Assembly (NCBI GenBank): GCA_020852275.1
Contig: JADZBE010000031.1
Coordinates: 49,250-113,249 of the forward strand
Reading direction: 5' to 3'
Source of the DNA: Phycisphaerales bacterium
Lineage (GTDB): Bacteria > Planctomycetota > Phycisphaerae > UBA1845
Length of the DNA: 64,000 bases
Positions 8,024 through 56,056 of the stretch are shown here, piece by piece. The notes below the pieces were generated by a model that did no database searches, was not told the DNA's origin, and was given only the letters and a program-made list of their open reading frames with translations. The position numbers and the translations under genes are program-made. Position 1 is the first letter of the stretch. Every line of letters starts with the position of its first letter.

Positions 8024-8125
8024 CGTCACCCCCGCGCAGACGGGGGTCCGGGATACCCGGGAAACTGCTTGGTGAACGTCTCCTCAAAAGCAACCGGCTG
8101 GATTCCCGCCTGGGCGGGAAGGACG
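8024..8125. repeat. CGTC-tagged REP composite 1 (B forward, A reverse)
   Basis: cgtcacccccgcgcagacgggggtccgg ... ctggattcccgcctgggcgggaaggacg. Confidence 0.85.
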
Positions 8126-8130
8126 AGCGT

Positions 8131-8984
8131 GGTTCTCACCACGGGCTGCCATGGGTACGGGGCTGCCGCGGGACTGGGTCATCGGCAAGGGCACGGAATC
8201 GGAGCGGGACCCTCCGCGGATGATGCTGGCCTGCCTGCCGCCGGGTTCGTTGATCGTGGCGGACGCGGGATTCACCGGCTTTGACCTGCTGCGTGACATT
8301 CTGGCGCACGGGCATTCCTTCCTGATTCGCGTGGGCGCCAAGATCACCCTGCTGACCGGGTTAAACATGGAGGGGGAGCAGGAGGGGGACACGGTGTGGC
8401 TGTGGCCGACGAGCCGGCGCGGCGAGTCTCCGTTGAAGCTGCGTTTGATTCGGCTGACGAAACGCGCCGCCGGTTCGCCGACCCCGAGGTGTCTGAGGAC
8501 CAACGTCCTCGATCCGGCGCGGTTGCCGGAGGAAACGGCCGCGGTCTTGTACCGCATGCGCTGGGGCGTGGCGCTGTTCTCTCGCGGCTTGAAGTAGACG
8601 GCGGAGCAGCGGATGTTGCGCAGCGATTCCCCCGGCCAAGCCCGCTGGGAATTGCAGAGGGAAAGGCCGGCCCTGCTGTTGTGGGGCCTGATGAGCGTGC
8701 AAGGGATCATCGCCGCAGGAAAGGACCCGTGGTCGGGGCGCGTGGCCGGTGCGTTGCGGATCGTGCGGGAGGCGATGCGCACGCCGCGGCGGTGGCGTCG
8801 TCGCGGGGACCTGCGGCAGGCGCTCACCGGCGCATTGCAGGATGATTGCGTGTGGACCCAGTCCAAAATCGCTCGGGATTGGCCGCATCAGAAACACGAA
8901 GCCCCGCCCGGTGTTCCCAAAATCCGCCCGGGTACAGCGGACGAAAGTGCCAGCGCCCGAGCACACTACGGCAAGGTTGGATAG
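8131..8984 (+). pseudogene. IS4-family DDE transposase remnant (5'-truncated, frameshifted, internal TAG at 8595-8597)
   Basis: GTGLP.DW..G....ER, LIVADAGFTGF, FLIRVG, and a degenerate YREK motif LYRMRWGVALFSRGLK*T; the reading frame resumes after the stop and ends WPHQKHEAPPGVPKIRP. Confidence 0.8.
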
Positions 8985-9095
8985 CCTTCGGTTCACGGCG
9001 TTGCCTGCCACCGCGAACTCGTCACCCATGCGGCATCGGTCGGATCATGCCGGGGGGTCAATTGGCACAAGGTGCCCGGCTTGGCGCTGGAGTCT

Positions 9096-9641
9096 TCAGT
9101 TGCGCACATCAGCCAGCAGGGCTGGTAGCCCGGAAGCGCCTGCGGGGGGTGCGGGGTTGGCGGAAGCAACATGGATCGGCGGCGATTCCCCGTCGAGTGA
9201 GGGAATGCGGCGCCTCAAGGCGCTGACGAGGGTTTCGACCGCCGCCTGCTGCCTCAACGTCCAGGATGCGTTTTCCGGATTGAAGGCCACTTCGACGCAG
9301 ACCCTGCCCGGTCGATTCGGCACGCGAGCCTGATTCTCCCAGAGGAGGGTTCGTTCGATGTCGCCGTCCGGCGACACGCGGAAATGGGAAGCTGGTGGAT
9401 CGGCGAGATTCAGCTCGCCGCCGGCAATCACCGGGATGATTTCGATGCCTTCCCAGCGTTCGTCCGAAGCGCCGGTCGGCGGGATTGCGATTTCGCCGGC
9501 CCAGTCGGACTGCCCGTGAGCCATCGCCCAGCGGTAGTGATCGGCCAGCCGGGGTTGAAGGGCCTCAAGCGAGGCGGCGAGGAGGATCATCGAGCAGGCA
9601 AGGGCGGCAAGCACCCTGAACATCCGTGTTCGAGGCACCAC
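9096..9641 (-). CDS. Membrane-anchored protein with a degenerate amidase_2/PGRP-like domain
   Basis: N-terminal hydrophobic helix; RWEGIEI, SHFRVSPDGDIERTLLWENQ, VCVEV, TLRQQAAVETLVSALR follow the amidase_2 layout, but the IVIHH zinc motif is absent. Confidence 0.55.
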   Translation of the reverse strand: MVPRTRMFRVLAALACSMILLAASLEALQPRLADHYRWAMAHGQSDWAGEIAIPPTGASDERWEGIEIIPVIAGGELNLADPPASHFRVSPDGDIERTLLWENQARVPNRPGRVCVEVAFNPENASWTLRQQAAVETLVSALRRRIPSLDGESPPIHVASANPAPPAGASGLPALLADVRN

Positions 9642-9994
9642 TGGTGCGACTCCGTTGTGGTTGCGGACTGGTATTCGAAACTTGTCGTGGGGAAGCTATT
9701 CCAATTTCGGTCGCGCGCCAAGCATTTCATCAGTAGATTTTGCGGGCGATGCGAATTGATGGAGTTTGCGAATCAGGAGTCGGCGCGATGCAGGCGCGCG
9801 GCTGCCCATATGCAGTGGTGAGGGGACAGCAGGCACGCAAGTGGTGCCAAGTGGAGACGCAACTGACTGAGAAAGTCCGTGGTACTCGGGGATGCACGTC
9901 GCTTCAGTGCAGGCGGGGATGCGCTCTGGTCACGGGGCGGAGCTAACGGTCAGGACGGTACTCTCTCGCTTGCGCCACGGCTTCGGTTGACGGC

Positions 9995-10039
9995 CCCTCG
10001 CCGGCGCTTCGGGTTCAGAACCCGAAGCGCAGGCGAGGG
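9995..10039. repeat. Long near-perfect palindrome; probable terminator or head-to-head repeat downstream of the FGE-domain gene
   Basis: ccctcgccggcgcttcgggtt-cag-aacccgaagcgcaggcgaggg: 21-bp arms with one mismatch, about 40 bp past the stop at 10078. Confidence 0.8.
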
Positions 10040-10077
10040 CGAAAGCGGCTACCTCATCGGTGATCCAACCGATCGGA

Positions 10078-13000
10078 TCACGATCGGAATCGCGCCAGCA
10101 CCAACGCGGCATCGCGCAGGTCCACGTCGCCGTCCGCGTCGAGGTCGCCGGCGGCGGCGTCGAAGCCTGCCGGCTGCCCCGGACCTTCCAGCCATCCGGT
10201 GATGGGCGTCCAGTCATCCAGGTCCACGTCACCGTCCGCATCGGCGTCGCCGTCCCGATGCGCAGTTGCCCGGAGGACGCGAAATCCGACCTGAGGCCCG
10301 ACGAACCCGGGCGAGGCGAAAGTGCGAGCGGTGGTCTTTAGGAGGGGGACGTCGCTGCCGCTCTTCGGGCTGTCGTGCGCCCCGCCGCGCAAGGTTCTGG
10401 AGTTAAGCCGGTCGATGCAGTAGCGGTTGGTCAGCCACTGGTAGGCGTTGCCGGACATGTCGAACAGCCCAAAGGCGTTGGCGTCCGCCCGCGGAAGGAA
10501 GCCGTCGCCGTGGTCCAGGCCGTCGAACCGGGCGACGGGCGTGGTGGAAATGAGGTTGGCCTCGTAGGGGTCGCCGCTCGCCTTGTAGTTGGCGTCCATG
10601 CCGTCGATCGCGTCGCGGCCGAAGCCGTACTTCGTGTTGATCCCCAGGCCCGGGTTCCACGCCGCCGCGGCGTACCACTCGTTGTAGAGCCGGGCATTGT
10701 CCGATCCGGCGGATGAGCAGTCGCGGTCGGCCCCGTCGTCGAAGGGCAGCCTGAAACCCAGGGTGTCGCGGATGAGCTGCTGCTGCTCGCCATCGGTGAG
10801 ATCGCGCACGATCCAATCCGCGTCGCTGATCGTGACTGGATGCCAGCCGTCGACGTTGCCCGACGCGGCCTCCGCGTAGCACCGCTGGTCGGCGGGCAGA
10901 CCCTGGTCCAGCGTGAGCCAATTGCAGAACTTGAGCGCGCCAAACCAGCTCACCGCCGTGACCGGATGATCCTCGAAACCGGGATCGACGGCATACCGGA
11001 CGCCGTCGAAGAAGATCCGCCCGACCTGCGCGCTGTTGTTGATCCTGCGATAGATTTCAACGCCGCCGCCGTCGCTGCCTTCGGTCCCTTCGACTTCGGA
11101 GTGGATGAACACGTCGCCGCTGTCGAGGTCGTGGTAAAGATACTGCCCGCGTTCGTGGGTCTTGTTTGCCCTGGCGTCATTCAGGAACGAAGCGAACTCC
11201 GCGTTAGTTACGTGCGTCCGCCCGGCGACGAAGGCGTGCAGCGGGCCGTTTCTCTGGCGCGAGGCCGGATCCACGAGGCGTTCCTGAACATCGAACAGCG
11301 GAGTGGAGAGCGTCAGCGTCAGGGTCCGTTCGAACGTCTGTCCGGCGGTCAGATCGGAGAAAAGAATGGCGGCTTCGAGCGGCGTACCGATATCAAGCCC
11401 GAGCGTGGACGCGCTGTCGATCTCCACAACCACGGTCGTACGCTCGCCGGGCTGGAGCGTTCCGCCGGCGCTGAGACCGCCGTCGATCCGCAGCCAGTCG
11501 ACGCCGGGATCCGCCTGGGCGGCGCTCCAGTCGATCGGCCCGCGGCTCTCAGGCGGGTTCTTGACCGTAAAGACGCGGCTTCGGAAGTGAATCGGTCCGC
11601 CAGGCCGACCGCCCGCCTCCCACGCCGTGCCCGGCTCCACGCTCATCGAGGGGCGCGAAAGGGTCAGGATCACGCTGCGCTGCACGGACGGGACCCAGTC
11701 GCCTTGGAAGTTGATGACCCCGGTGTAGGTTCCCGGCGCAAGTTGTTCGGTCTGGGCGTTGAACCGGGTGGTTACCTCCTGCGTGCCCTCCGGGTCGAGA
11801 ATCACGCCGTCCGCGGCGTCGAATTCGATCCATGCAGAGCCGGCGGGTGGATCGCTGGTGTCTTCGAAGGTGACGGACCAGTACCACTCCTCGAAGCCCG
11901 GGTTGAAGAGCGTGTAGGTCTGCGAAGCCGGCTTAAAGGGTCCGCCCTCTGTACCTGAGGACTCAAACGCTTCGACAGGCTCGATGCGAAGTCCGTCCAC
12001 ATCGATGAAGATTTCCCGGCTCTGCGTGAAGGTCGAGCCGGATTCGCCCCAGATGAGCGTCACGCCGTGGCGTCCGGACGGGAGGTCGTTGGCGGCGGCG
12101 GCAATCCGGGCAGTGATCGTCGCCGTTTCGTCCTTGTCGGCAAGCGTGCCGGCTGTCGCGTCGAGCTCGAGCCACGCCGTTTCCGGCGGATCCAGCAACG
12201 CCGTCCATTCGATCGAGCCGTCGATGAGATTCGTGAACGTGAAGGCGTGCTCGCCCGGCGTGAACGGACCGCCGGGGTTTCCGGTGGAGACGGATTCGCC
12301 TTCGGGGCTGATGGAAAACGGCGCGGTGACCTCAAGCTGAACCGATCGCGTGAACTCGCTGCCGGTGCAGGCGTCGGCAACCGTAACCGTTGCTTGAAAC
12401 AAACCGGTTGGCAGGCTCGCCGCGTCATCGCCCACGGCCACAAGGAGCGCGGCTTGACCGTGCGCGTCGAGTTCGAGCGAGGCCTGGTCGCCGCCGTTGA
12501 GGGTCAACCACTTGACACCCCCGGAATCGCCCGCGGTTTCCACCCACTGCGCGGACGCCTGCACGGGGAGGTCCGACGCGTTGTCGAGCGTGTAGGCCTG
12601 CTCGCGCGCTTCGGGCAATCGGCCCATCACCGCTGTCGCGGAGAAGTCCTCTGGCGGCGACAGGGCAAGCGGCTCCCGCAGCGTGAGTCGCACAAGTCGA
12701 TCGTGCGTCGCGCCGTCTTTCTGGTTGGTGAAGGTGATCCGGGCCACATTTTCTCCGACGATCAGCCCGTCGGTGCAGTGAGGGTCCAGCCGGACCGTCA
12801 CGGCAGCGGCAGCGTCCTCGGCGATCTGTCCGCCCGCGGGATCAACGACGACCCATGTGCGATCGACCGCCGCGGTGAAATCAACCGGCGCGGCGGAAAA
12901 ATTGAAGACGGTGCAGTCGAAGGTTGTCTGCTGAAGCTCGTAAGGCCCGCCCCAGATGCCGGAGTTTTCGAGATCCGCCTGCGGCGCGATGAAGAGCGAG

Positions 13001-14097
13001 GCGGGGACGCTCTGAGCGATCCGGATTCCGGTCGAGCCGCTGGCGGAGTCCGCGGATCGTGCCGCGGCGCGGGCGGTTTCCAGTGCGGAGCGCGCGCTGA
13101 GGAACCCGCCGCCGCGGTTGCGCCGCTGCGTCTGCGACACGTCCTTGTCCTGCATCCATTCCCAGAGATTGCCGGAGGCGTCGCGCAGGCCATACGCATT
13201 CATGTCGGCGGTGGTCTGGAACAACCCGTCGTGATCCGTGCCGTCGTAGTAACCGGCGGGAGTCGTTGAGTTGTCGAACGGATCGCCGCTGTCGCGGTAG
13301 TTGGCGTCCGTTCCGGACAGCGTGTCGCGCCCGAACCCGTAGACATGGTTCGCGCCGGCGGCGCCGTCCCACGCGGCGGCCTTGTACCACTCGTTGTACA
13401 CGCCGGGGCTGGCGCCGTCCGTGCCGCCGTCCATGGGGAGTCGGTAGCCGAACCGTTGCAGCAGGGCGTCGCGTTCCGCGGCGCTCAAGTCTCGCGATTG
13501 CCAATCCGCGAGGGCGATGGTGACGGGACGCCACTCGGCCGCCGCGGCGGATTCTGCGTAAGCCCTCTGCGCCGCCGGCAGCTTCCTGCTCAGCGTCAGC
13601 CAGTTGCAATATTTCAGCGCGCCGAACCACGTCACTCCCGCAGTTGGATGGTCCGCATGGGCGCCGTCGGGAATGCGATACTGCTGCGCCTGCAAGTCGT
13701 ACACAATCCGGTCGAGATTGACGGAAGCGTCGAACAGCAGCGTGCCTGAGCCGGCCGTGCCGACCTCGCCGGTGCTTGTGGGCGCGAGATACACGTCCCC
13801 GCTGTCCACGTCGAAGTACATGTAGGCGCCGCGGTCATCCGCGAGGTGCGCGAGGGCGTCGTTGAGGAAGCCGGCGAACTCGGCGTTGGTGACTTCCATT
13901 CTGCCGATGCGGAAGTCGTGGACAGGCCCTTGCGGCTGCACATCGAGCTTTCCAACAAACCGCGAGGGCGGGTTCTGCGCCTGCAGGGTGGAGGCGGCAA
14001 GAAGTGACGCCGCAACCGCGCAAGATCCGCGCGAGCGGTTGAGTGGCGCACTCTTTACGGAAGCGCGAACCCCTGAATCTCCCATGTGACGAGCCAT
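10078..14097 (-). CDS. Large secreted protein: FGE-sulfatase/C-type-lectin-fold domain, about 5 BACON/Ig-like repeats, a second FGE-like domain and a dockerin/EF-hand-like tail
   Basis: Two homologous blocks (VTNAEFA.FLNDA; HP..VTWFGALK.CNWLT; YNEWY.AAAW; N.YGL.D.SGN.W/Y.W; RGG...G.R). Intervening repeats 'GGPF.P....FT..N......W.A......WL'. Tail GDADADGDVDLDD...GDLDADGDVDLRD. Start uncertain. Confidence 0.85.
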   Translation of the reverse strand: MARHMGDSGVRASVKSAPLNRSRGSCAVAASLLAASTLQAQNPPSRFVGKLDVQPQGPVHDFRIGRMEVTNAEFAGFLNDALAHLADDRGAYMYFDVDSGDVYLAPTSTGEVGTAGSGTLLFDASVNLDRIVYDLQAQQYRIPDGAHADHPTAGVTWFGALKYCNWLTLSRKLPAAQRAYAESAAAAEWRPVTIALADWQSRDLSAAERDALLQRFGYRLPMDGGTDGASPGVYNEWYKAAAWDGAAGANHVYGFGRDTLSGTDANYRDSGDPFDNSTTPAGYYDGTDHDGLFQTTADMNAYGLRDASGNLWEWMQDKDVSQTQRRNRGGGFLSARSALETARAAARSADSASGSTGIRIAQSVPASLFIAPQADLENSGIWGGPYELQQTTFDCTVFNFSAAPVDFTAAVDRTWVVVDPAGGQIAEDAAAAVTVRLDPHCTDGLIVGENVARITFTNQKDGATHDRLVRLTLREPLALSPPEDFSATAVMGRLPEAREQAYTLDNASDLPVQASAQWVETAGDSGGVKWLTLNGGDQASLELDAHGQAALLVAVGDDAASLPTGLFQATVTVADACTGSEFTRSVQLEVTAPFSISPEGESVSTGNPGGPFTPGEHAFTFTNLIDGSIEWTALLDPPETAWLELDATAGTLADKDETATITARIAAAANDLPSGRHGVTLIWGESGSTFTQSREIFIDVDGLRIEPVEAFESSGTEGGPFKPASQTYTLFNPGFEEWYWSVTFEDTSDPPAGSAWIEFDAADGVILDPEGTQEVTTRFNAQTEQLAPGTYTGVINFQGDWVPSVQRSVILTLSRPSMSVEPGTAWEAGGRPGGPIHFRSRVFTVKNPPESRGPIDWSAAQADPGVDWLRIDGGLSAGGTLQPGERTTVVVEIDSASTLGLDIGTPLEAAILFSDLTAGQTFERTLTLTLSTPLFDVQERLVDPASRQRNGPLHAFVAGRTHVTNAEFASFLNDARANKTHERGQYLYHDLDSGDVFIHSEVEGTEGSDGGGVEIYRRINNSAQVGRIFFDGVRYAVDPGFEDHPVTAVSWFGALKFCNWLTLDQGLPADQRCYAEAASGNVDGWHPVTISDADWIVRDLTDGEQQQLIRDTLGFRLPFDDGADRDCSSAGSDNARLYNEWYAAAAWNPGLGINTKYGFGRDAIDGMDANYKASGDPYEANLISTTPVARFDGLDHGDGFLPRADANAFGLFDMSGNAYQWLTNRYCIDRLNSRTLRGGAHDSPKSGSDVPLLKTTARTFASPGFVGPQVGFRVLRATAHRDGDADADGDVDLDDWTPITGWLEGPGQPAGFDAAAGDLDADGDVDLRDAALVLARFRS

Positions 14098-14505
14098 GGT
14101 GAGGCGCGGGATGTCAAGGCATACCCTCATCGCTGGAGTTCCCCGGCGGGCATTTCACTCTTCAACTGCGTGCGCGAGGCGTATCGGTATATCGGACGAA
14201 GTCGGTGCCGCGGGCCATCCATCAGGCAGGGGTCGAAGATCGTTCGTGCCGCGGCGCTCTACGCATGGGTGGGCGAATTGCCGATGCACACTGAGTATCC
14301 TCGGCCCCCTGAGGATCAGATCCCGGGGCGCCATGTAAGGGGCGGATGGCGGCGCGCCGCGCGTCGGCGGAGGCGGAATGCGCGCGGCGAAAGCTGGGAT
14401 CCAAGGGAGAACGTGGACGAGGTTTCGGCCGCGGGGCCATTGAGGCTGGGGGTCCATCCCGCGCGCCGATGTGTCGATTTGGAAGGATTCCTCGCTGCGT
14501 GACGC

Positions 14506-15642: not shown

Positions 15643-15777
15643 CGCGTCGTCGCGAGGGTGCCCGCGCATTTCCTTCCTCTTGAGAACGGTCCCAAAGCCG
15701 ACCCGGCACAGCCGTTCCGCCCGCGATCCGGCGAGGGGGACACGGGCAACGTGCTATTCAATTCGGGGGCCCCGGCG

Positions 15778-15783
15778 TATAAT
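15778..15783 (+). promoter_or_regulatory. Candidate sigma70 -10 element (TATAAT) for the small-gene/paaA operon
   Basis: Perfect TATAAT in a GC-rich context 56 bp upstream of the ATG at 15839; the -35 is weak. Confidence 0.35.
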
Positions 15784-15838
15784 ACATGGTGTCCGTAAAG
15801 AGGAGCCTCAGCGGACTCGATGCTTGCGGGGAGTGTCC

Positions 15839-16090: not shown

Positions 16091-16123
16091 TCGGCTTCCA
16101 TCTCCTTGGCGTGGAACACGCAC

Positions 16124-17436: not shown

Positions 17437-17438
17437 CC

Positions 17439-22444: not shown

Positions 22445-22557
22445 GGGCGTATTCCCGCTCGCGCCTCGCAGGGGCGCGGCGACCGTCCAAAGACCGCCCA
22501 CTGGCGGGCGCGCGCCACCGGCGTAGCGCGGGAGGACTCGGAAGTCCGCGTGGAGAC

Positions 22558-22660
22558 TGTCACCCCCGCGCAGGCGAAGGTCCAGGGCGCGTCACCAAAC
22601 CGCTGGATTCCCGCCTGCGCGGGGATGACGGGTCGGATTCCTGCCCCCGCGGGAACGATG
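22558..22660. repeat. CGTC-tagged REP composite 2 (B forward, 2 x A reverse)
   Basis: tgtcacccccgcgcaggcgaaggtccag ... ctggattcccgcctgcgcggggatgacg ... cggattcctgcccccgcgggaacgatg; lies between convergent genes. Confidence 0.8.
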
Positions 22661-22711
22661 AGTGTCGCCCCTCGTCACGGTCTGCCAGGCACACAGGCTC
22701 CGCGGAAGCGG

Positions 22712-25012: not shown

Positions 25013-25289
25013 AGGTTTGAGCGAGCGAAGCGCCCGCGCTCGCACGGATCCGCGCTCGCTTGGATTCGCGACGCGCGGGGCGATGCCCAGTTTTCGGGCG
25101 CGTGCCCGAACGAATCATGGCCCGTGCCGCCCATTCCCCCGGCGCGAGCGACCCTATTCTTCCGCGCCTCGTCGCGGCGTCAACGTGCGCTCCGCGTCCT
25201 GCGGAGTTCGCAATCCGCCCGACTGGGCCATCTGGGCGCCAGGTGCGTGCGGAATCGATGCCTCGACTCGCACGGAGTGGCAAGGCTTG

Positions 25290-25448
25290 CCCTTACGGCG
25301 CAAGCGTGAATCCAGCCCCATCGTTCCCGCGCAGGCGAGAATCCCATCCGTCATTCCCGCGCAGGCGAGAATCCCATCCGTCATTCCCGCGCAGGCGGGA
25401 ATCCAGCGGCCTTGCGGTGATCCCTGGACCCCACCTGCGTGGGGGGCG
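25290..25448. repeat. CGTC-tagged REP composite 3 (3-4 x A forward at 30-bp period, B reverse)
   Basis: tccgtcattcccgcgcaggcg(a/g)gaatcc tandem copies at about 25319, 25349 and 25379, plus a degenerate copy at 25290; reverse ctggaccccacctgcgtggggggcg at 25424. Confidence 0.9.
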
Positions 25449-25753
25449 TTGCGCAGAACTCATTGCGAGATCCGCCGCGAAAGATCGAGCGTGGAGCGCG
25501 CTTGGGGCAGGTAGCTCCCTTGCTGTGGGTCAGGTCGCAGCGCGTGCGAGCAGGGTCGCGGAGGCAATCGGCGCCCTGCGGTCGCGCGCTACCGAGTGGC
25601 GACTTCGATGCTCGCAACACCTTGTAAAAAAGACACTTCCGGCGGCGTGGGAGATTCGCCGATTCGTGGCACACGTCATGCTCATGCACGATCACGCAAC
25701 ACGGATGCTGGTTCGAAGAGAACAGGTGTGTCGGCGTGAGGAGGGCGAGGGCG

Positions 25754-29066: not shown

Positions 29067-29282
29067 GCCACTGATAACCGAAACTTCCTCCTCTCACTCG
29101 CACGGCCGAGCCTGCACCACGTGGGTCCGACCGTGCGAGCTTTTTCATCTTCACACGCAGGCCCTTCGACCTGGCCAAGCGCGGGGCTTGAGGCACAAGG
29201 CGGCGAGCACTCCCGGCGCGCCTCTCGGCGCCGCCTCGGGCAGCGCGGCTTCCTCAACAGACCGTGGTGAAAGGCGACCGGT

Positions 29283-29384
29283 CGTCATGCTCGCGAAGGC
29301 GGGAATCCAGACGGGGACTTCCGAGAGGCACGAAACCAGCGAGTTTCCGGGGCCGACTGGACCTCCGCCTGCGCGGGGGTGACG
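29283..29384. repeat. CGTC-tagged REP composite 4 (A forward, B reverse)
   Basis: cgtcatgctcgcgaaggcgggaatccag ... ctggacctccgcctgcgcgggggtgacg; lies between convergent genes. Confidence 0.85.
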
Positions 29385-29420
29385 GGACCAACGCCCGGCT
29401 TCGAGTTTCACCACAGTCTG

Positions 29421-30975: not shown

Positions 30976-31049
30976 TGTATCGAACCGGCGCAGGTTGCCA
31001 GATGCCCGGTCCTGGCCGCGCTCGAAGGCTCGGAGTGAAAGCAGATATC

Positions 31050-31153
31050 CGTCATTCCCGCGCAAGCGGGAATCGAGTCCCGTCATTCCCGCGCAGGCGG
31101 GAATCCAGTGGTCTTGCGGCGCGTCCTGGCCCCCCGCCTTCGCGGGGGTGACG
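31050..31153. repeat. CGTC-tagged REP composite 5 (2 x A forward, B reverse)
   Basis: cgtcattcccgcgcaagcgggaatcgag, cgtcattcccgcgcaggcgggaatccag, ctggccccccgccttcgcgggggtgacg. Confidence 0.92.
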
Positions 31154-31189
31154 AGATCGAAGATTGGTTCCAAGTTCAACGCCAGCCCC

Positions 31190-45287: not shown

Positions 45288-45501
45288 ACGTGTTCCCCTG
45301 ATGGTGAACCCTGATCGTGCGCCTTGAGCATGTGCCCCGGAAGAAGCGCCCTTGCACCCGCGCCCTTGTGCAAACGCCCCTTCCGAAGCGCCCCCGAGCC
45401 GGTGTGCTTGAGGAGTGTCAAGGGTACTCCCTTGCTGACCGCTTCGTAAGGTCAAAGAATCGGAGCGGGAAGTACGACAGGCCGTGGCGATATGCGTCGC
45501 T

Positions 45502-45605
45502 CGTCGTTCCTGCGCAGGCGGGAATCCAGCTTCGTCATTCCCGCGCAGGCGGGAACGCAGCGGTGGGTCGAAACGCCCTCGACCCCCGACTGCGCGGGGG
45601 TGACC
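45502..45605. repeat. CGTC-tagged REP composite 6 (2 x A forward, B reverse)
   Basis: cgtcgttcctgcgcaggcgggaatccag, cgtcattcccgcgcaggcgggaacgcag, ctcgacccccgactgcgcgggggtgacc. Confidence 0.88.
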
Positions 45606-45641
45606 AGCCGCGTGCAGGGTTGCGAGTTCCCACACGGTCGG

Positions 45642-47155: not shown

Positions 47156-47158
47156 GGA

Positions 47159-47229
47159 TGTCGACGTTTCGACTTTCAACTTTCGACGTGTCGACTTTCA
47201 GCTTTCGACGTTTCGACTTTCAGCTTTCA
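47159..47229. repeat. Heptamer/octamer tandem repeat with 22-bp period
   Basis: gtttcgac tttcaac tttcgac / gtgtcgac tttcagc tttcgac / gtttcgac tttcagc tttca, abutting a stop codon. Confidence 0.85.
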
Positions 47230-48369: not shown

Positions 48370-48572
48370 GGGAATCACTCCTTTCGTGAATTGAGAACCG
48401 ACGGGGCCCAAGCGGCGCGCACCCCGCGCCTGCCGTGGTCCTCATCGGCAGAATCATCTTCCCACGGCAAGGGCCGTGTATTGCTTATAAATCCTAAGAG
48501 AGATTCGAGGGGGCGGCAAAGGCGCGCCGGCACGGCGCGGCGCGGACAGACGGGCAGAGGAAGCGGGAGGCA

Positions 48573-48630
48573 GGATTTCGGATTTCGGATTGTGGATTTC
48601 GGATTGCGGATTTCAGATCTGAAATCTCAG
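48573..48630. repeat. Heptamer tandem repeat GGATT(T/G)(C/T) followed by palindrome tttcagatctgaaa
   Basis: ggatttc ggatttc ggattgt ggatttc ggattgc ggatttc agatctgaaatc. Confidence 0.85.
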
Positions 48631-48852
48631 ATCACGGATGCCCGGAACCGCCTGATACGCCGGATCGCCTGATGCCCGGGGCCGCCAGATGCGCGGAACC
48701 GCCGGTTGCCCTTGCCAGCCCCGTCGGATTCCCGTGCGGAAAGCCCTTGGCGACTCCAGAACAGGTTCGCCCGGTGCTGCGCCACCGCATTCCTAGTGCG
48801 TCGCCGCCTCATCGCCGGTGCGCCGCCACCTCATTCCCGGAGTCCTGCGCCC

Positions 48853-50901
48853 TCAACTTCCTGTGCTCGCGGCCTGACGGGCCGCCTGCATGATGTCTTC
48901 GACGCCGACGCCGGTGTAAGCAAACACCTCTTCGGCCGTCAGCGCCGATTTGGGCAGGCGCCGGCACGTCAGACCGATCACCCGCAGTCCGCTGGACGGC
49001 GCCGCGTGCGCGGACGAGCCGGGAGCGGCGCGGGGCGAGGCTTTTGGCGCTCCAAGGGACGCGCCAACGTCTCCGTCCGCGGCCGCGGCCTCCGCCAGCT
49101 CCGCGTGCAGGCCGCCGATATAGTTGTCCTCCACGCTGAGGATCGTCCCGCCGCTGGCTCGCGCCGCCTCCAGAATCGCCGACGCATCCAGCGGAAACGC
49201 GTACACGTCGAACACGTTGCAGGAGACGCCCTCGCGCCCAAGTTCCTCCGCGGCCTGCAGCGCCGTGTGCACCATGTATCCGCTGCTGACCAGCGTCAGC
49301 GACTTCCCCTCGCGCAGGCGCTTCCAGCCGGAGAGGTCAAAGCGCTCGGTCGGCGAATACAGAAACGGCGCGTCAGGACGGTGCGTGCGCATGTATGCCA
49401 GACCCGGCGCGCTCGCCATGAGTTCCACGCAGGCATACGCGCTCACCGCGTCCGACGGCTGAAACACGCGACACACCGGCTCGCCGCGCCCGTTGTCCGC
49501 CCGCGTCATGCTGCGGAAGTACGCCACGTCCGGCAGCGACATCTGCGAAGGCCCGTCCGCCCCGAGCGACACGCCCGAATGCGAGCCGACCAGCTTGACG
49601 TTCGCCCGCGTGATGGCCGCCATCTCCACCTGGTCGTACGCCCGCGTGAGGAACTTCGCGAAGCTGCTGACGAACGGAATCTTCCCCGCGGCGGAAAGCC
49701 CCACGGCCGCCGTCACCATGTTCTGCTCGGCGATCTTGCACTCGAAGAACCGCTCCGGATGGCGCTCGGCGAAGAAGTTCGCGTAGGTCGAGTTGCTCAC
49801 GTCGGCGTCGAGGCTCACGACGCGCGCGTCCACGTCTCCCAGTGAGACCAGCGCCGCGCCGTACGCCACGCGCGTGGCCAGCTTCTTCTTCGCCAGCGCC
49901 GCGTCCAAGCCGACGCGCTTCAGCCCGGTGGCAAAATCCGGCAGCCGCACGGGCGCGGATTTCACCGCCGGCTCCACGGGCGCGGACGGCGTCGCCTGAC
50001 GTGCTTCGATGGGTTCATCACTCTCCGGCGAGAGGCTTGCGAGCGTTTCATCGAGCTGCGCCAGCGCGACCGACAGTTGCTCCCGCGTAAGCGGTTTGCC
50101 GTGGTAGTTGCCGGACTGAAGCAGCGGCACGCCCCACCCTTTCACCGTCCGTGCGACGGCGGCCAGCGGCTTTTCACCCTTGCCCGCGCGGGAAAGGATC
50201 GAGGAGACCTGCTGCGGATCGTGCCCGTTGAGCGTCACCGCCTCCCAGCCGAAAGCGGTCGCTTTGGCGCGGATCATCTCGGGCGTCTGCTGATCTGAAA
50301 CATCGCCGGCCTGTCCCTGCCCGTTGCAGTTGAACACGACGCAGACGTTGCGCAAGCCCTTCTCGGCGACGAAGTCCATCGCCTCCCATATCTGCCCCTC
50401 GCGCGATTCGCCGTCGCCGACGAGCACGAAGATGCGCTTGTCTATGCCGTCAAGCCGCGCGGCCAGCGCCAGCCCCGCCGCCGCGGAGAGCCCCTGCCCC
50501 AGCGACCCGGTCGCGGCGTCGAAGAACGGGAACCCTTCGGCCGGGTTGGGGTGGCCGTCGAGCACGCTGTCCAGCTTTCGCAGCGTGAGCAGATCGTCGC
50601 GCGTCAGCCGCTTGCGCTTCTGGCGCGTCCCCACGATTCCGCCCAAGTCCGAGTAGGCGGCGTACACGATCGGGACGGCATGACCCTCGGATAGCACAAG
50701 CCGGTCGGCGGCCGGGTTCCAGGGGTCCGCCGGGTCGAAGCGCATCTCGTGATACATCAACTCGACCACAATGTGCGCCAGCGAGAGGCCGCTGGAGGGG
50801 TGGCCCGACCCCGCCTGCGTCGTCATCTGCAGCACGAGCCGGGACAGCTCGACGGCCTTGGTGTGGAGGGTTTGTCGCGTCGTCGTCGTCGTCGCGGTCA
50901 A
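48853..50901 (-). CDS. tkt: Transketolase (single chain)
   Basis: GSGHPSSGLS, DRLVLSEGHA, LDGHPNP, ATGSLGQGLS, GDGESREGQIWEA, IAEQNMV, GADGPSQM, YMRTHRP. Confidence 0.93.
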   Translation of the reverse strand: MTATTTTTRQTLHTKAVELSRLVLQMTTQAGSGHPSSGLSLAHIVVELMYHEMRFDPADPWNPAADRLVLSEGHAVPIVYAAYSDLGGIVGTRQKRKRLTRDDLLTLRKLDSVLDGHPNPAEGFPFFDAATGSLGQGLSAAAGLALAARLDGIDKRIFVLVGDGESREGQIWEAMDFVAEKGLRNVCVVFNCNGQGQAGDVSDQQTPEMIRAKATAFGWEAVTLNGHDPQQVSSILSRAGKGEKPLAAVARTVKGWGVPLLQSGNYHGKPLTREQLSVALAQLDETLASLSPESDEPIEARQATPSAPVEPAVKSAPVRLPDFATGLKRVGLDAALAKKKLATRVAYGAALVSLGDVDARVVSLDADVSNSTYANFFAERHPERFFECKIAEQNMVTAAVGLSAAGKIPFVSSFAKFLTRAYDQVEMAAITRANVKLVGSHSGVSLGADGPSQMSLPDVAYFRSMTRADNGRGEPVCRVFQPSDAVSAYACVELMASAPGLAYMRTHRPDAPFLYSPTERFDLSGWKRLREGKSLTLVSSGYMVHTALQAAEELGREGVSCNVFDVYAFPLDASAILEAARASGGTILSVEDNYIGGLHAELAEAAAADGDVGASLGAPKASPRAAPGSSAHAAPSSGLRVIGLTCRRLPKSALTAEEVFAYTGVGVEDIMQAARQAASTGS

Positions 50902-50912
50902 GTGGATTCTCC

Positions 50913-50972
50913 CGTTTGCGTTTGCTGTTGCGCCGGCGTTTGCGTGTGCGGCTGCTCTTGCGTTTGCGTTTC
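50913..50972. repeat. Hexamer tandem repeat (cgtttg consensus, 10 units) upstream of tkt
   Basis: cgtttg cgtttg ctgttg cgccgg cgtttg cgtgtg cggctg ctcttg cgtttg cgtttc. Confidence 0.75.
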
Positions 50973-51103
50973 AGAATCAGGCGCTCGCCGGTCACCACGG
51001 CGGGCCGTCCCCCGAAACCGAGCGAGAAGTTAGACGGGGCGGGCAGCGCGTTCAAGAAAGACCCTCCCCGTCGGCGCGCCGACCGGGTATGCTGACGTGC
51101 CGC

Positions 51104-52303
51104 ATGAACCCGCTGGTGCTCTTCGAAGATCAGGGATGGACCCGATTCGAGCCGCTGCTCGCGTGGCGCAGCCTGCCGGAGCTGGTGCTGGGTAGGCATT
51201 CGCTGCTGGCGCGGTGCGAACGCCAGGCCGGGAGCAAGGCCACCGGGCTGCTGGTTCGATCCTGGATGCGCGAGGTCGCGGCAGAGCGGAGTTCGCTTGC
51301 GGTGAATGCCGCCCTGCCGCCCGACGCCCTGCTCGTGAACGCGCGCTGGCTGGGGTCGCCGGTCAACCCGTCTTCGCGTGCGCCGCTTGTCGGGCGGGGC
51401 AGGGATGGCGTCGCCTGGATCTGTTGTGATGCCGGGTTGGCTTCTCGCATCAGCGCGGAGGTGCTTCTGTCCCCGTCGGCGCTGGATGCGGCCTTGAAGG
51501 ATGTGCCAGTTGTCGAGGCCGAGGGCGATTGGCTTTGCGGGCCGTGGGACCTCGTCGCGCGCTTGGGCGACGCGCTCCGCTCGGAATGGCGTGCCGGCGA
51601 CGCCGGTCATGCATTCCCCCTTCCTCCATTTGTTCATGTCGCAAATTCGGATCAGATTCACGTCGGCCCATCGTGTGTCTTCCAAGGACCTTGCGTCGTG
51701 GACGCCTCGGAAGGGCCGATCTTCATCGACGAACAAGTGCACGTCGGCGCCTTCGCGGTGATCGAGGGCCCCTGCTTCATCGGCCCGCGGTCGCGCATCA
51801 ACGCGCACGCTTGGCTGCACGGCGCGAATCGCATTGGCCCGGTCTGCAAGATCGGCGGCGAGATCGACGGCTGCGTCTTTCAAGGGCATTCCAACAAGCA
51901 ACACGCCGGGTTCCTCGGGCATTCCTATGTCGCAAGCTGGGTCAACCTGGGCGCGGGAACGTCGAACTCGGATTTGAAAAACACGTACGGCAGCGTGCGC
52001 GTGCGCGTCGGAGGCGAAGAAGTTGACACGCGATGCCAGTTCTTCGGCGCGATCATCGCCGACCACGCGAAGACCGGCATCAACACGGCCATTCCGACCG
52101 GCGCCGCGCTTGGATTTGCCTCGATGGCGGCGGGCGGCGGGCTGATCCCCAAGTCATTGCCCGCGTTCGCATGGCTCACCGAGCGCGGACTGGCGCAGGG
52201 CGACCCATGGAGGCTTGTCGAAGTGGCGGAAAAAGTCATGGCGCGGCGGCGGATGTCCATGACGAAAGCCGAGCGGGCGCTGTTCCTGCGGCCGCCGGTG
52301 TAG
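51104..52303 (+). CDS. GlmU-like putative sugar nucleotidyltransferase with left-handed beta-helix
   Basis: VLFED, LL..R...EL.LG, LLVNARW, GPIFIDE, IEGPCFIG, IGPVCKIGGE, SNKQHAGFLGHSY...WVNLGAGT.NSDLKNTYG. Confidence 0.85.
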   Translation: MNPLVLFEDQGWTRFEPLLAWRSLPELVLGRHSLLARCERQAGSKATGLLVRSWMREVAAERSSLAVNAALPPDALLVNARWLGSPVNPSSRAPLVGRGRDGVAWICCDAGLASRISAEVLLSPSALDAALKDVPVVEAEGDWLCGPWDLVARLGDALRSEWRAGDAGHAFPLPPFVHVANSDQIHVGPSCVFQGPCVVDASEGPIFIDEQVHVGAFAVIEGPCFIGPRSRINAHAWLHGANRIGPVCKIGGEIDGCVFQGHSNKQHAGFLGHSYVASWVNLGAGTSNSDLKNTYGSVRVRVGGEEVDTRCQFFGAIIADHAKTGINTAIPTGAALGFASMAAGGGLIPKSLPAFAWLTERGLAQGDPWRLVEVAEKVMARRRMSMTKAERALFLRPPV

Positions 52304-52503
52304 CGCGCGCGGCACGATGCCAGCGGCCACGGCGCCGATCGTCATCGTCAATTCTGATTTTGGCGAGGAGAGTTTGTCTTATTCAAAGATCGCCGCCCGA
52401 TCGGCAAATTCGGGTCTTCCAGAACCTCGCACCTTCACCAGATTGGAAGCCAATGCGACGCGCCAAGGATATTGTGAATACACCTCCCGAGAAACAATTC
52501 ACC

Positions 52504-54249
52504 ATGCGCATCTTCACTTCCACCTTGTTGTGTCCTGCCATCCTTCAGCTCTGTGCCTCGGCCATGGCGCTGGATGGCCCGAAACCCGACGAGGTTGCAT
52601 GGCTGAAGGAACACGCCATTTCCCTGAAAACCGTTGAGGCTGGACATGGCTTTGATGATCTTCAGGCGCTCAAGCAGCTCATAGGCGAAGCGCGCGTCGT
52701 CGCCCTGGGCGAATGCACACACGGCACGCGTGAAGTTTTTCAGATGAAGCACCGGCTCGTGGAGTTCCTCGCCGCCGAAATGGGCTTCACGGTTTTCTCC
52801 ATCGAAGCCAACATGCCGGAGTCCTGCGCCGTCAGCGACTATGCCGTGCGCGGACAGGGCGACCCCCGGAGGCTCCTGGATGGCATGTACTTCTGGACGT
52901 GGAACACGCAGGAAGTGCTCGACATGATCGAATGGATGCGCGCGTTCAACGCCGCGGGAAGGGGGCGCATCGCCTTCACCGGTTTTGACATGCAGACGCC
53001 CGATGTCGCCATGGGCATTGTCACGGAATTCCTCAAGCGCGCGGACCCAGCCTACGCCGGTCAGGCCGAGCAATCGTATGCCCTCGCCGGACATCGCACC
53101 GACGCTGAGCCGGCGGCGCCGTACTGCACGCTCGTGGGCACGTTTCCTTTGGATAACTGCCTTGGGAAGCAGATTCGTTTCACGGGTCAGATCAAGACGG
53201 AGGGCGTCACGCGCCCGCAGGCCGGCCTGTGGTGGCGCGTCGATGGACCGGACGGGGTGCTTGCATTCGACAATATGCACGACCGTGCACCCACCGGGAC
53301 GACGGACTGGAAACTGTTTACCATTACCCTCGACGTCCCCCGAGATGCCGTCAACATCAACTTCGGCCTGCTTGACACCGGGGACGGCGTTGTGTGGTTT
53401 GACGATCTGGCTGTCGAGATTGACGGACGGCGGCTCGCTCTTGTGGGTCAGTTCGACCTTGACTTCGAGCAGTTTCAATCCGCTGCGCCCCTCGGCTTTT
53501 CCCTCAATTCCAACCAATACCTCGTCGGACCGGATGTTTCCGTTTTCAAATCCGGCAGACAGAGTCTTCGGGTCGAGCATCGTGCCAAGGCCCCATCGCC
53601 GAGATCCCCACAACCTCGCCCCGCTGACATCAGCGCAGCCTGCAAGGCGGTCCTTGAGCACATGGATGCATCGAAAACGCAGTACGCGGCCCTCACATCC
53701 CAGCGTGATGCTGACTGGGCAATACAGAATGCACGCGTCGTTGCTCAGTGCGAACAGATGAAAGCCAACGAGATTTCGCGCGATGAAAGCATGGCGCGCA
53801 ATGTACAGTGGATCTTGGAGCATGAACCGCAAGGCGCGCGCATCGTGCTGTGGGCCCACAATGGGCACGTTCACAATCGCCCTGGCGCCATGGGCTCATG
53901 GCTGCGACGCACCTATGGCAAGGACTACGTTGTGCTGGGCTTCGCTTGCGGCGAAGGACGGTACACGGCCATAGGCAACGACGGGCTGGGCATTTATCCC
54001 CTCCAACCCCCGCCGGCGGACAGCGTGGATGCTTTCTTCCGTGCCGCACAAATCCCCATCGGAGTCCTGGATCTTCGCACCGCCTCCAAGGACGACGCCT
54101 CAAGCGCCTGGCTGACGCAGGCCCGCCCGTTCCGCATGATCGGAGCGCTGGCGACCGACTTTCAATTCGGGGCGTGCAATGTTCAGGAATGCTACGACGC
54201 CCTCATATACATCGACCAGACGACGCCCACGCGAAGCCTGCGCAACTAA
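52504..54249 (+). CDS. Secreted erythromycin-esterase (Ere) family protein with an inserted carbohydrate-binding-like domain
   Basis: VVALGECTHGTREVFQMKHRL, GFTVFSIEA, FWTWNTQEV..MIEWMR, RDESMA.NV, IVLWAHNGHV; insert 'AGLWWRVDG...FDNM...GTTDW...VWFDDL'. Confidence 0.88.
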   Translation: MRIFTSTLLCPAILQLCASAMALDGPKPDEVAWLKEHAISLKTVEAGHGFDDLQALKQLIGEARVVALGECTHGTREVFQMKHRLVEFLAAEMGFTVFSIEANMPESCAVSDYAVRGQGDPRRLLDGMYFWTWNTQEVLDMIEWMRAFNAAGRGRIAFTGFDMQTPDVAMGIVTEFLKRADPAYAGQAEQSYALAGHRTDAEPAAPYCTLVGTFPLDNCLGKQIRFTGQIKTEGVTRPQAGLWWRVDGPDGVLAFDNMHDRAPTGTTDWKLFTITLDVPRDAVNINFGLLDTGDGVVWFDDLAVEIDGRRLALVGQFDLDFEQFQSAAPLGFSLNSNQYLVGPDVSVFKSGRQSLRVEHRAKAPSPRSPQPRPADISAACKAVLEHMDASKTQYAALTSQRDADWAIQNARVVAQCEQMKANEISRDESMARNVQWILEHEPQGARIVLWAHNGHVHNRPGAMGSWLRRTYGKDYVVLGFACGEGRYTAIGNDGLGIYPLQPPPADSVDAFFRAAQIPIGVLDLRTASKDDASSAWLTQARPFRMIGALATDFQFGACNVQECYDALIYIDQTTPTRSLRN

Positions 54250-54382
54250 TCGGATGGGGAACCGGCATCCCTTTCGCAAGCCTGCTTTCAATGGCGGGAC
54301 CGCCCGCCCTGTCCCGCTGAATTGCCTCCGAGGTCATGGTCGCCGCACGCGTCCGGCTCCATCGCCCTTGAAGGCCGCCGCA

Positions 54383-55855
54383 TTACAAAAACAACAGCGT
54401 CACGCCGACAAACAACGGAACGAGAATGCCAACGGAATAGACCATGTACCCGAAGAAGCTCGGCATCTTCACGCCCGACTGTTCGGCGATGCTCTTGACC
54501 ATGAAGTTCGGGCCGTTTCCAATATAGGTGTTGGCGCCCATGAACACCGCTCCCAGCGAAATGGCCACGAGCAGATCCTGCCGGATGAAATTGCCGTCCA
54601 GCAACTGAAAGACCCCCGGGCCGGCCTGATGGGTCATCGAGTTGGCGATCTGAAAAAACACAAGATAGGTCGGCGCGTTGTCCAGGAAACTGGACAATGC
54701 TCCCGTGACCCAGAAGAATTTCCAGGGCGCATCCAGCACCTTGCCAATATCGTCGCCGCCGGCGCGCAGCAGCTCCAGCGGCGGCTGCATGGAAATAAAT
54801 ATCCCGATGAAGAGAACGGCCACTTCGATGATCGCTGTGTAGTTGAACTGGTTGGCTTCGCGGACGGATGACGGCGTGCGCCACAGCGAAACCGCGACCA
54901 TCCCCAGCATGGCCATTTCGCGCAGGAAATGCGGCGCGACCAGCGCCGTGCCCGGCAGCGCCTCGCCCGGCTTGATCAGCGCCACGCACAGCACCACGCC
55001 CAACAGCAGCAGCAGATTGCCGCCGCCCCGCAATGTGAGCCGGCGCACCTGCGTTTCATCCAGCACAAGATCCCGCAGCGTCTCATGCCGATAGGCCGCA
55101 CGATCCCAGAAGTAATACACCATCAGCAACCCCGCGGAAAGAAACAGCCACTCCTTCCACAGATTGAGAGTCCACAAGAACGGAACGCCCTGCAGATACC
55201 CCAGAAAGAGCGGCGGATCACCGATGGGAAGAAGGCATCCGCCGACGTTGCTTACCAGGAAAATAAAAAAGATCACGGTGTGCTTGACGTGCCTGCGCTC
55301 GGAATTGGTTTGGAGCAGCGGGCGAATCAGCAACATGCTCGCTCCGGTTGTCCCGATCAGGCTCGCCAGCGCCGCGCCGATGCCAAGAAAGGCCGTATTG
55401 GTCAGCGGATGCGCGGGCAGGTCGCCCTTCAGGTTGATGCCCCCGCTGATCACATAAAGACAGAAAAGGAGAATGATGAAGGGCAGATACTCCTCCGCCA
55501 TCGAGTGGATCAAGGCCTTTTCCACGCCATGCCATCCGCGCGTGGCCGCGTAGTACAGCAGCGCCATCCCGGCGAAGCCCGCGGAAACAATGAGTTTATT
55601 GCGGTTGTGTTCCCACCAATGCTGCGTCCTCGAAATCAGCGGCAGAACGGCGATGCTCAGGAGCATTCCCACAAATGGCAGCACGGCCAGAGCCGACGGC
55701 GCAGGCGCCTGGATATCATGCCCGGATGCGTGCGTCGTCAGAAACCGATAGACGACCCATCCCAACAGGACCACGCCCGAAGCGGCCGCCAGGCGCGTTC
55801 CCCATTGCGCTGCCACCGAGGGCGCTGCGCCTGCCTGTTGTTGCCTGTCGTTCAT
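54383..55855 (-). CDS. Putative sodium:proton antiporter / ion-transporter superfamily membrane protein
   Basis: PFVGMLLSIAVLP, EYLPFIILLFCLYVISGG, IGTTGASMLLIRP, PIGDPPLFLGYL.GVPF, LSSFLDNAPTYL, TYIGNGPNFMVK. Confidence 0.88.
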   Translation of the reverse strand: MNDRQQQAGAAPSVAAQWGTRLAAASGVVLLGWVVYRFLTTHASGHDIQAPAPSALAVLPFVGMLLSIAVLPLISRTQHWWEHNRNKLIVSAGFAGMALLYYAATRGWHGVEKALIHSMAEEYLPFIILLFCLYVISGGINLKGDLPAHPLTNTAFLGIGAALASLIGTTGASMLLIRPLLQTNSERRHVKHTVIFFIFLVSNVGGCLLPIGDPPLFLGYLQGVPFLWTLNLWKEWLFLSAGLLMVYYFWDRAAYRHETLRDLVLDETQVRRLTLRGGGNLLLLLGVVLCVALIKPGEALPGTALVAPHFLREMAMLGMVAVSLWRTPSSVREANQFNYTAIIEVAVLFIGIFISMQPPLELLRAGGDDIGKVLDAPWKFFWVTGALSSFLDNAPTYLVFFQIANSMTHQAGPGVFQLLDGNFIRQDLLVAISLGAVFMGANTYIGNGPNFMVKSIAEQSGVKMPSFFGYMVYSVGILVPLFVGVTLLFL

Positions 55856-55922
55856 TTCTGCGCAGCAGCCCCGGCGATGAAGTAACAGTCTGCGGTGAAA
55901 CTCGAGACCGAACGCGAGAGGT

Positions 55923-56056
55923 CGTCACCCCCGCGCAGGCGGGGGTCCAGTCCGTCCGGGAAAGCCCCAGGATTCCTGCCTGCTCGCCGGCCGCCGCCTG
56001 GATTCCCGCCTTCGCGGGAATGACGAAGCTGGAGACCCGCCTTCGAAAGAATGACG
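55923..56056. repeat. CGTC-tagged REP composite 7 (B forward, 3 x A reverse)
   Basis: cgtcacccccgcgcaggcgggggtccag; reverse copies at about 55968 (degenerate), 55998 (ctggattcccgccttcgcgggaatgacg) and 56029. Confidence 0.9.

Follow-up and report, generated by a model that had tools for sequence, protein, structure and literature searches.

What are the seven clusters of CGTC-tagged hairpins found in a 64,000-nt stretch of the draft genome of a Phycisphaerales bacterium (GCA_020852275.1; C31:49250-113249, hereafter the window), and what has spread them? The genome, termed G000, comprises 5.05 Mb in 43 contigs with 65% G+C; its sister genome is termed G001. An interpretation made earlier from the letters of the window (the sequence-only reading) distinguished two hairpin variants, A and B, and proposed that one B facing one to four A copies forms a mobile unit resembling a bacterial interspersed mosaic element (BIME). 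The evidence presented here indicates that the clusters are probably copies of a modular, non-coding element resembling a miniature inverted-repeat transposable element (MITE), which carries a heterodimer of two CGTC-1 hairpins with their tags facing outward.

Two hairpin variants and their arrangement

The A unit has the layout CGTC-ATTCCCGC-GCAG-GCGGGAAT-CCAG and the B unit the layout CGTC-ACCCCCGC-GCAG-GCGGGGGT-CCAG. In each, an 8-bp stem encloses a 4-nt loop, which replaces the 6-bp stem and 8-nt loop drawn previously. Judged by sequence, A and B are CGTC-tagged repetitive extragenic palindrome (REP) hairpins of family CGTC-1, and A equals the Neisseria NTS/dRS3 repeat. Both show the features of that family: an unpaired CGTC (or TGTC/CCTC) tag; an 8-bp stem, a 4-nt loop and a CCA tail; and a mostly inverted dimeric arrangement. 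The identity of the A core with dRS3 had been proposed from the outset, and the core indeed equals the commonest Neisseria REP/dRS3 21-mer. The A unit also fits exactly the NTS consensus CGTCATTCCCGCGMAVGCGGGAATCYRG, which has 133 exact matches in G000 and 283 at one mismatch or fewer. An Rfam search of the window returned no family match.

By the same kind of comparison, B is a stem variant of A with compensatory changes. The two stem types are discrete genome-wide, with 419 units of type TT/AA, 191 of type CC/GG and at most 17 of each hybrid type. The BIME-like heterodimeric pairing of two compensatory variants, as described by the sequence-only reading, is supported. Positions of the 5' CGTC tag are conserved at 89-96% among the 578 A units and at 85-93% among the 291 B units.

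These unit numbers derive from a scan of G000 with the 28-mers A = CGTCATTCCCGCGCAGGCGGGAATCCAG and B = CGTCACCCCCGCGCAGGCGGGGGTCCAG, tolerating up to 7 mismatches, which identified 869 units in total. A reversed-pattern control over the whole genome gave 6 matches. Within the window, exact core matches number 4 (A) and 3 (B), where shuffles expect 0.00 and 0.01. Because the shuffles, the reversed-pattern control and the genome-wide tally described below all agree, chance or local coincidence is ruled out as the origin of the clusters. At the same threshold the window holds 20 units, or about 24 when one decayed B-like unit and three copies of a degenerate A-like module (A', below) are added; the earlier figure of about 22 is close to this count, although not identical to either value.

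All seven clusters lie where they had been reported. Each has one B opposed to 1-4 A units, with the CGTC tags outward; the B of the cluster at 25290 is decayed by one indel and several mismatches. Unit coordinates likewise confirm the A-A period of 30-31 bp in the window, and genome-wide the period is 31 bp in 114 of 131 junctions.

With units grouped into clusters at gaps of 120 bp or less, and with lower case (a, b) denoting an inverted unit, G000 contains 398 clusters. The canonical form, one to five A units followed by one inverted B, accounts for 240 of them (Ab 141, AAb 74, AAAb 20, AAAAb 3 and AAAAAb 2). Other clusters include A alone (71), B alone (26) and AA (23). Homotypic or divergent arrangements are rare: an A/a junction occurs about 12 times, BB twice and the divergent aB once; Abb is likewise seen twice in G000, and one BBaa is present in G001. 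Equal frequencies of A-A, B-B and A-B doublets had been named beforehand as the pattern that would speak against the rule. Instead, 240 of 398 clusters read A^n-b, compared with about 12 A/a and 2 BB. Homotypic doublets are thus far rarer than A-b, and the rule is therefore a property of the genome. A degenerate b is found at the expected place in 41 of 98 A-only clusters, compared with a null rate of about 10%. The spacer between A and b is bimodal, at 16-18 nt (86 cases) or 45-48 nt (140 cases).

The composite element and its insertion

Each A/B cluster is contained in a larger non-coding element of 133-290 bp, present in roughly 400 copies. In order, the element comprises a terminal inverted repeat (TIR) of 12-16 bp, a left arm, one to five head-to-tail A units at the 31-bp period, an optional A', a 17-nt spacer, an inverted B, a right arm and the second TIR. 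The TIRs read CAGnCCGTGGTG ... CACCACGGnCTG and have 12 matches in the window, as compared to 0.77 expected. Beyond the hairpins, conservation reaches about 24 nt outward from the first A on the left and about 36 nt outward from b on the right. About 60% of copies contain A', a conserved 30-nt degenerate A-like module (CCGGTGGCTTGCGAGGAGGCACGAATCCAG) that had escaped the sequence-only reading; A' and the short spacer together make up the long spacer. The consensus is 163 bp, and full elements have size modes of 133, 163, 194 and 224 bp. The mobile unit is accordingly not the bare A/B pair previously envisaged, but this TIR-bounded composite with unique arms and a 4-bp target duplication.

The proposal that orthologous intergenic regions be compared for empty sites proved productive. 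Initial alignments of orthologous regions of G000 and G001 were too diverged and too laden with repeats to give clean empty sites. These were resolved by joining the two flanks of each G000 element and searching the product by BLAST against 1.12 Mb of G001. Ten G000 elements are missing from the orthologous G001 site, and in 7 or 8 of the ten G001 is about 4 nt shorter exactly at the junction. At the site of element 4, aligned by hand, G001 reads CCTCAA^GCCTCC and G000 reads CCTCAA-[163 bp]-TCAC-GCCTCC, so that the flanks of this element are TCAA / TCAC. Further duplications include CCAA/CCAA, CTAA/CTAG and GTAA/GCAA. The empty sites lack the whole TIR-to-TIR unit and are 4 nt shorter; the composite itself therefore inserted, duplicating 4 bp. 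This identifies the TIR-to-TIR composite as the inserted unit, which transposed like a MITE. Indeed, the element has the attributes of one: it is short, non-coding and bounded by TIRs, and it shows both a target duplication and presence or absence as a whole at orthologous sites.

The flanking sequences are informative about the target. For copies with precise boundaries, exact 4-bp flank matches occur in 6 of 30 (1.0 expected), and matches at three or more of the four positions in 12 (5.5 expected; p about 0.0035). The flanks show a YTRR-like preference, and all four positions covary directly (z = 5.5). A 2-bp TA duplication of the IS630-like kind was considered and rejected, as all four flank positions covary and the gaps at empty sites are 4 nt. 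Insertion from TIR to TIR with a 4-bp duplication is a signature of DDE-type transposition; neither IS200-type nor nuclease-only activity has it, and single-strand transposition of the IS200/IS605 type would not be expected to duplicate its target. Separately, the stop codon (TAG, TAA or TGA) of an open frame at least 100 codons long directly adjoins 15-19% of element ends. Such adjacency is probably a side effect of the T/A-containing 4-bp target, as such words lie mostly at stop codons in a 65% G+C genome, and it probably reflects no function.

Other element sites are occupied in both genomes. Copies match their nearest neighbour at a median identity of 82% and never above 92.6%, and solo or degenerate units are numerous in G001. 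The family was presumably active at about the time G000 and G001 separated and thereafter, and has since become quiescent.

The 163-nt consensus folds as one long hairpin in which A pairs with b except for an AA/CC mismatch, and the fold of the whole element has a z-score of -6.6 (DNA) or -7.2 (RNA). The difference between A and B keeps each local hairpin yet weakens the A:b pairing. Because the changes preserve the local stems at the expense of the long-range pairing, the local hairpins look like constrained structures.

A second family, of about 118 bp, has the same TIR and carries a GTGG-type hairpin, and chimeras of both families exist. Its termini read CAGnCCGTGGTGAAAGTC...GACTTTCACCACGGnCTG, and its inner GGGGCACCGGCTTTCCAGCCGGTG hairpin sometimes occurs as tandem half-copies. 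One chimera, on the minus strand of G000 C32 near offset 36252, combines a left arm of the 118-bp family with A units and an arm of the CGTC family.

The number of A units is the variable part of the element. A copy number changes locally in 31-bp steps, and orthologous loci differ in A count, which bears out the claim that the A side is selectively amplified. Element 2 is AAb, and the orthologous G001 site is Ab with a single A. At another locus G000 has Baaaa and G001 has BBaa, and three of the G000 copies have private substitutions in common. Derived bases are common to adjacent A units at a rate of 0.56, as compared to 0.15 for random pairs. In element 3, the private variant GCGAGAATCCCA is common to the A copies at 25319 and 25349, and the four A units carry 7, 5, 3 and 0 mismatches towards the spacer. 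A similar gradient is seen in two-A elements, where the outer A has 2.57 mismatches and the inner A, nearest the spacer, 1.59 (n = 74, Wilcoxon p = 0.0014). The coordinates of the copies in the window are collected in Table 1.

Table 1. Element copies and the transposase gene in the window, with examples of the second family elsewhere in G000. Window positions count from the first letter of the window; type L, long spacer; type S, short spacer.
Feature	Position	Strand	Description
Element 1	7988..8148	-	L type, 161 bp; B 8024-8051(+), A' about 8068-8095(-), A 8098-8125(-); TIRs 7988-8002, 8134-8148
Element 2	22522..22684	-	S type; B 22558-22585(+), A 22603-22630(-), decayed outer A 22633-22660(-); single recognisable TIR, ending 22684; low-side end estimated via module spacing
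Element 3	25288..25451	+	Tandem A at 25288, 25319, 25349, 25379; 17-nt spacer; decayed B-like 25424-25451; TIRs no longer recognisable
Element 4	29258..29420	+	L type, 163 bp, best preserved; TIR 29258-29272, A 29283-29310, A' about 29312-29339, b 29357-29384, TIR 29406-29420
Element 5	31026..31189	+	S type; A 31050-31077, A 31081-31108, b 31126-31153; arms and TIRs decayed; ends estimated via module spacing
Element 6	45478..45641	+	S type, 164 bp; TIR from 45478, A 45502-45529, A 45533-45560, b 45578-45605, TIR to 45641
Element 7	55886..56080	-	L type; TIR from 55886, B 55923-55950(+), A' 55968-55995(-), A 55998-56025(-), decayed outer A 56029-56056(-); high-side end estimated
RAYT gene	62146-62724	-	NF047646 (REP-associated tyrosine transposase), 86 bits; region 62043-62845
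118-bp family, example	G000:C26:9123-9245
118-bp family, example	G000:C13:8640
118-bp family, example	G000:C4:133326

Candidate enzymes and competing explanations

The full element is confined to G000 and G001; G002 gives one partial match, and G003 and G004 of the same genus give none. A-type units are more widespread, being found in 37 of 201 sampled Phycisphaerae genomes. B is abundant only in G000, G001 and G023, with A:B counts in this survey of 395:188, 201:85 and 104:87. G023 has no shell of arms and TIRs and carries BIME-2-like alternating arrays, (A-40-b-20..50)n. G171, from the same family and another genus, combines 203 A-type units with a near absence of B; in seven of its eight matches to the B pattern the stem is ACTCCC/GGGAGT, which makes a third compensatory variant.

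The sequence-only reading favoured a REPIN/BIME-type system mobilised by an HUH tyrosine transposase of the RAYT (REP-associated tyrosine transposase) kind, as in E. coli or Pseudomonas. Such a system would account for an inverted REP doublet that folds as a long hairpin; one paper assigns the Neisseria 21-mer, as a REPIN, to a Group-2 RAYT, and G000 has at least five Y1/RAYT genes, namely four PF01797 matches and the gene in the window. The window gene, however, is flanked by exact 33-nt GTGG-tagged inverted repeats (TGGGTGGCACGGGTCCGCAGCAGCGGACCCGTG), as the earlier remark on its different tag had implied, and with them it looks like an intact REPtron. Each RAYT gene of G000 has palindromes of its own on its flanks, GT(A/G)G-tagged or of other kinds. 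The tag of A and B is CGTC, not the GT(A/G)G of REPIN-RAYT and BIME systems, and no A or B unit lies directly beside the Y1/RAYT genes checked in G000 (5), G001 (11 fetched loci), G023 (5) and the G006/G008 loci. Target duplications are present, which IS200/IS605-type transposition would not be expected to leave, and the published survey of CGTC REPs found no RAYT association. Together, this makes mobilisation by a RAYT very improbable, and it agrees with the earlier view that no cognate enzyme lies inside the window.

By 14-mer counts, the repeats of the window gene represent a GTGG-tagged REP family with roughly 80 members across the genome. At G000:C26:113600-113900, a Y1_Tnp-like gene directly adjoins an array of about seven tandem repeats of a roughly 40-nt unit (CACGTCCCGGAGGTCCGTGTCACCCACTTGGGG...). 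A related motif, GGTGGCACGGACCTCCGGGACGTGC, occupies in G000 an intergenic site that holds an AAb element in G001.

The documented partner of CGTC-REP/NTS-SRM repeats is not an HUH enzyme but the Ssn GIY-YIG nuclease, and this is missing from the whole of G000. In a six-frame PF01541 search of G000, the sole GIY-YIG domain lies inside a 520-aa open frame, which we take to be UvrC. The advice to look for a nuclease or transposase gene flanked by the units was answered in part: none was found in G000 or G001, and an Ssn-like GIY-YIG gene was found in G023, G168 and G107. In G023, the 96-aa single-domain gene lies between a B at 1412(+) and an a at 1817(-), within a longer A/b array (G023:C4:76300-77900). 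The homologues in G168, G107 and G055 are 43-55% identical to its protein; the G168 gene has units on both sides and the G107 gene has a unit upstream. Used as a query, the G023 protein found nothing in G000, G001, G002 or G003, the best E-values being 0.39 in G000 and 0.17 in G001. A search of the PDB for a solved Ssn relative gave spurious WD40 matches only. The 'B -> gene <- a' layout in G023 mirrors the non-coding A-spacer-b unit. G171 has a single small GIY-YIG gene, distantly related to the G023 protein (27% identity) and without flanking units.

One possibility would be that the A/b pair is a non-autonomous form of an 'A -> ssn <- b' unit, copied or homed by a GIY-YIG ssDNA nuclease since lost, with the arms and TIRs representing the extended palindrome of the founder. 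Consistent with this proposal, the G023 gene sits exactly between B and an inverted A inside A/b arrays, its homologues in G168 and G107 also adjoin units, and the hairpins are the best conserved modules of the element. Moreover, Ssn-related motifs (SRMs) lie near 71% of ssnA homologues, ssn genes are typically motif-flanked, and an NTS-ssnA-NTS layout resembles an insertion sequence (IS; Chenal et al. 2025, PMC11893778). In that work, SsnA, a 94-aa GIY-YIG protein, cuts ssDNA upstream of the NTS and on one strand only; Ssn is the nuclease partner of the NTS, and the copying mechanism is not identified. Against the proposal, unit counts within the sampled class peak in G000 and G001, which have no Ssn homologue. 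Some insertions are younger than the split of these two genomes and bear their 4-bp duplications at the TIR ends, not at the hairpins. In addition, Ssn is known as a nuclease only, strand transfer by it not being demonstrated, and the same TIR bears different cargo in the 118-bp family. Copying driven by Ssn is thus distinctly unlikely.

A further possibility would be that the units serve the host by terminating transcription or stabilising mRNA, by forming arrays that bind protein or, following a proposal made for the NTS in Neisseria, by modulating how incoming ssDNA recombines. The greater conservation of the hairpins relative to the rest of the element would fit such a role, as would the many sites kept in both G000 and G001 and the modulation of transformation by NTS/Ssn in Neisseria. 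Yet G000 has no Ssn partner, the copies are decaying, and many units in G001 are solo or degenerate. By crude gene calls, the elements show no orientation bias relative to flanking genes (75 versus 72), and their intergenic classes (tandem/convergent/divergent 147/42/48) equal the genomic background (1988/512/500), with 20% of copies between divergent genes. This lack of orientation or context bias argues against a terminator, 3'-end or stabiliser role, and a host-serving function overall is quite improbable.

The MITE-like composite remains the reading that is probably correct. Here, the composite would have been mobilised in trans by a DDE-type transposase that recognises the TIRs and is now lost or unassembled. 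The hairpin pair would be cargo that descends from an A/b unit associated with Ssn, such as those that still surround the Ssn-like gene of G023. The excess of A may have arisen after insertion through replication slippage or unequal recombination, since the A side has tandem A-type modules (A and A') and B has no tandem partner. Most copies would by now be decaying selfish DNA.

Several points weigh against this reading. An autonomous element with the TIR was not found in the 43-contig draft of G000, by searches covering TIR pairs 0.4-5 kb apart, contig ends and DDE_Tnp_1, in an assembly where a repeated IS could be collapsed or missing. Most old copies no longer have an intact target duplication. 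Of the ten sites scored as empty, two are messy, and in one G001 carries another insertion; it is also conceivable that G001 lost elements by precise deletion and that G000 did not gain them by insertion. Module conservation is higher for the hairpins (A 0.92, b 0.89) than for the arms and spacers (0.71-0.79), a difference that points to some constraint or gene conversion, neither of which a MITE in pure decay would require. Finally, the greater decay of the outer A relative to the inner A is a gradient that simple slippage does not predict.

Two further results concern the search for the enzyme. No recurrent TIR pairs of 0.7-3 kb are present in G000. Nor did DDE_Tnp_1 yield a partner in the draft: its one intact element ends in TIRs of unrelated sequence, and what lies beside element 1 is the truncated relic of an unrelated IS4/IS5-type transposase. 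This frame-disrupted relic covers 8151-8597 (on to about 8990), matches DDE_Tnp_1 profile positions 46-163 and begins two bases beyond that element's TIR; an IS cut by the element or by a deletion may have left it.

A bolder extension would be that CGTC/NTS hairpin pairs spread mainly as cargo of unrelated MITE shells and flourish after the loss of Ssn, and that the asymmetry of one B and many A, together with the inner-A gradient, may record directional, enzyme-primed addition of A next to the spacer in place of random slippage. This extension is offered tentatively and is unlikely as it stands.

Relation to known systems

The hairpins themselves are already known. What is new is their packaging: a heterodimer sits in a MITE-like shell, one of its two partners is tandemly amplified, and the lineage lacks the known nuclease partner. 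Both Di Nocera et al. and Chenal et al. leave open how CGTC REPs multiply; G000 provides a clean natural example of a shell-borne heterodimer at hundreds of sites, which suggests that a MITE shell is one route for the spread of CGTC hairpins and makes this 'passenger in a MITE' route testable. The relatives that combine an Ssn-like gene with A/b arrays, set beside G000 and G001 with hundreds of shell-borne copies and no such gene, also provide matched material on the effect of Ssn. The practical value is modest, and lies in the annotation of planctomycete intergenic DNA and in fewer spurious open reading frame calls across hairpins.

The closest relatives are the CGTC-1 REPs of Di Nocera, De Gregorio and Rocco 2013 (PMC3733652), which include dRS3 and have an 8-bp stem, a 4-nt loop and a CCA tail. 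In that survey CGTC repeats come from five phyla, and the abstract lists Planctomycetes among the deep-branching phyla with tagged REPs. The dimers are mostly inverted, with heterodimers in some species, head-to-tail arrangements described as 'negligible' and nesting in a palindrome in H. neapolitanus; the repeats "apparently lack a dedicated transposase". The units described here are alike in the CGTC tag, the 8-bp stem starting with A, the 4-nt loop, the CCA(G) tail and the inverted (hetero)dimers. They are unlike in that two or more tandem A units, at the fixed 31-bp period, occur in 41% of canonical elements, and in that the dimer lies inside a shell with unique arms, TIRs, target duplications and empty sites.

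The NTS/Ssn system is similarly close. Chenal et al. 2025 (PMC11893778) extended dRS3 to the 28-nt NTS consensus, which A fits, and in both cases the units are directional, intergenic and present in hundreds of copies; the single-domain GIY-YIG gene of about 96 aa flanked by units in G023, G168 and G107 is a further likeness. In contrast, G000 and G001 belong to the minority of SRM-rich genomes without an Ssn homologue, and PMC11893778 describes neither the strict A^n-b architecture nor a TIR shell.

The REPIN-RAYT systems of Bertels and Rainey comprise hundreds of copies that are vertically inherited and decay upon loss of the enzyme. Here, too, an inverted REP doublet forms one long hairpin and populations number in the hundreds. 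The differences are the lack of a unit-flanked RAYT, the tag CGTC in place of GT(A/G)G, and the 4-bp target duplication.

In E. coli BIMEs, REP variants Y and Z are combined; these REPs are GTAG-tagged, RAYT-linked and located mainly at gene 3' ends. The likeness to the present element consists in two REP variants that are always oppositely paired, in short and long spacer classes and in a variable copy number. BIME-2 amplifies the Y-Z pair alternately, whereas here one partner is repeated head to tail. The description of the clusters as BIME-like therefore holds for the heterodimer of two variants and fails for the A array of G000, which has no such alternation. The arrays of G023, where A and b truly alternate, are a closer analogue than the G000 element.

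Pneumococcal BOX elements (boxA-boxB(n)-boxC) and the Correia elements of Neisseria are non-coding, TIR-bounded and presumed to be mobilised in trans. In BOX elements, as in the present element, one internal module varies in number while the two ends are fixed. BOX and Correia elements are unrelated to the present element in sequence, and here the variable module is a REP-type hairpin with a separately known nuclease partner.

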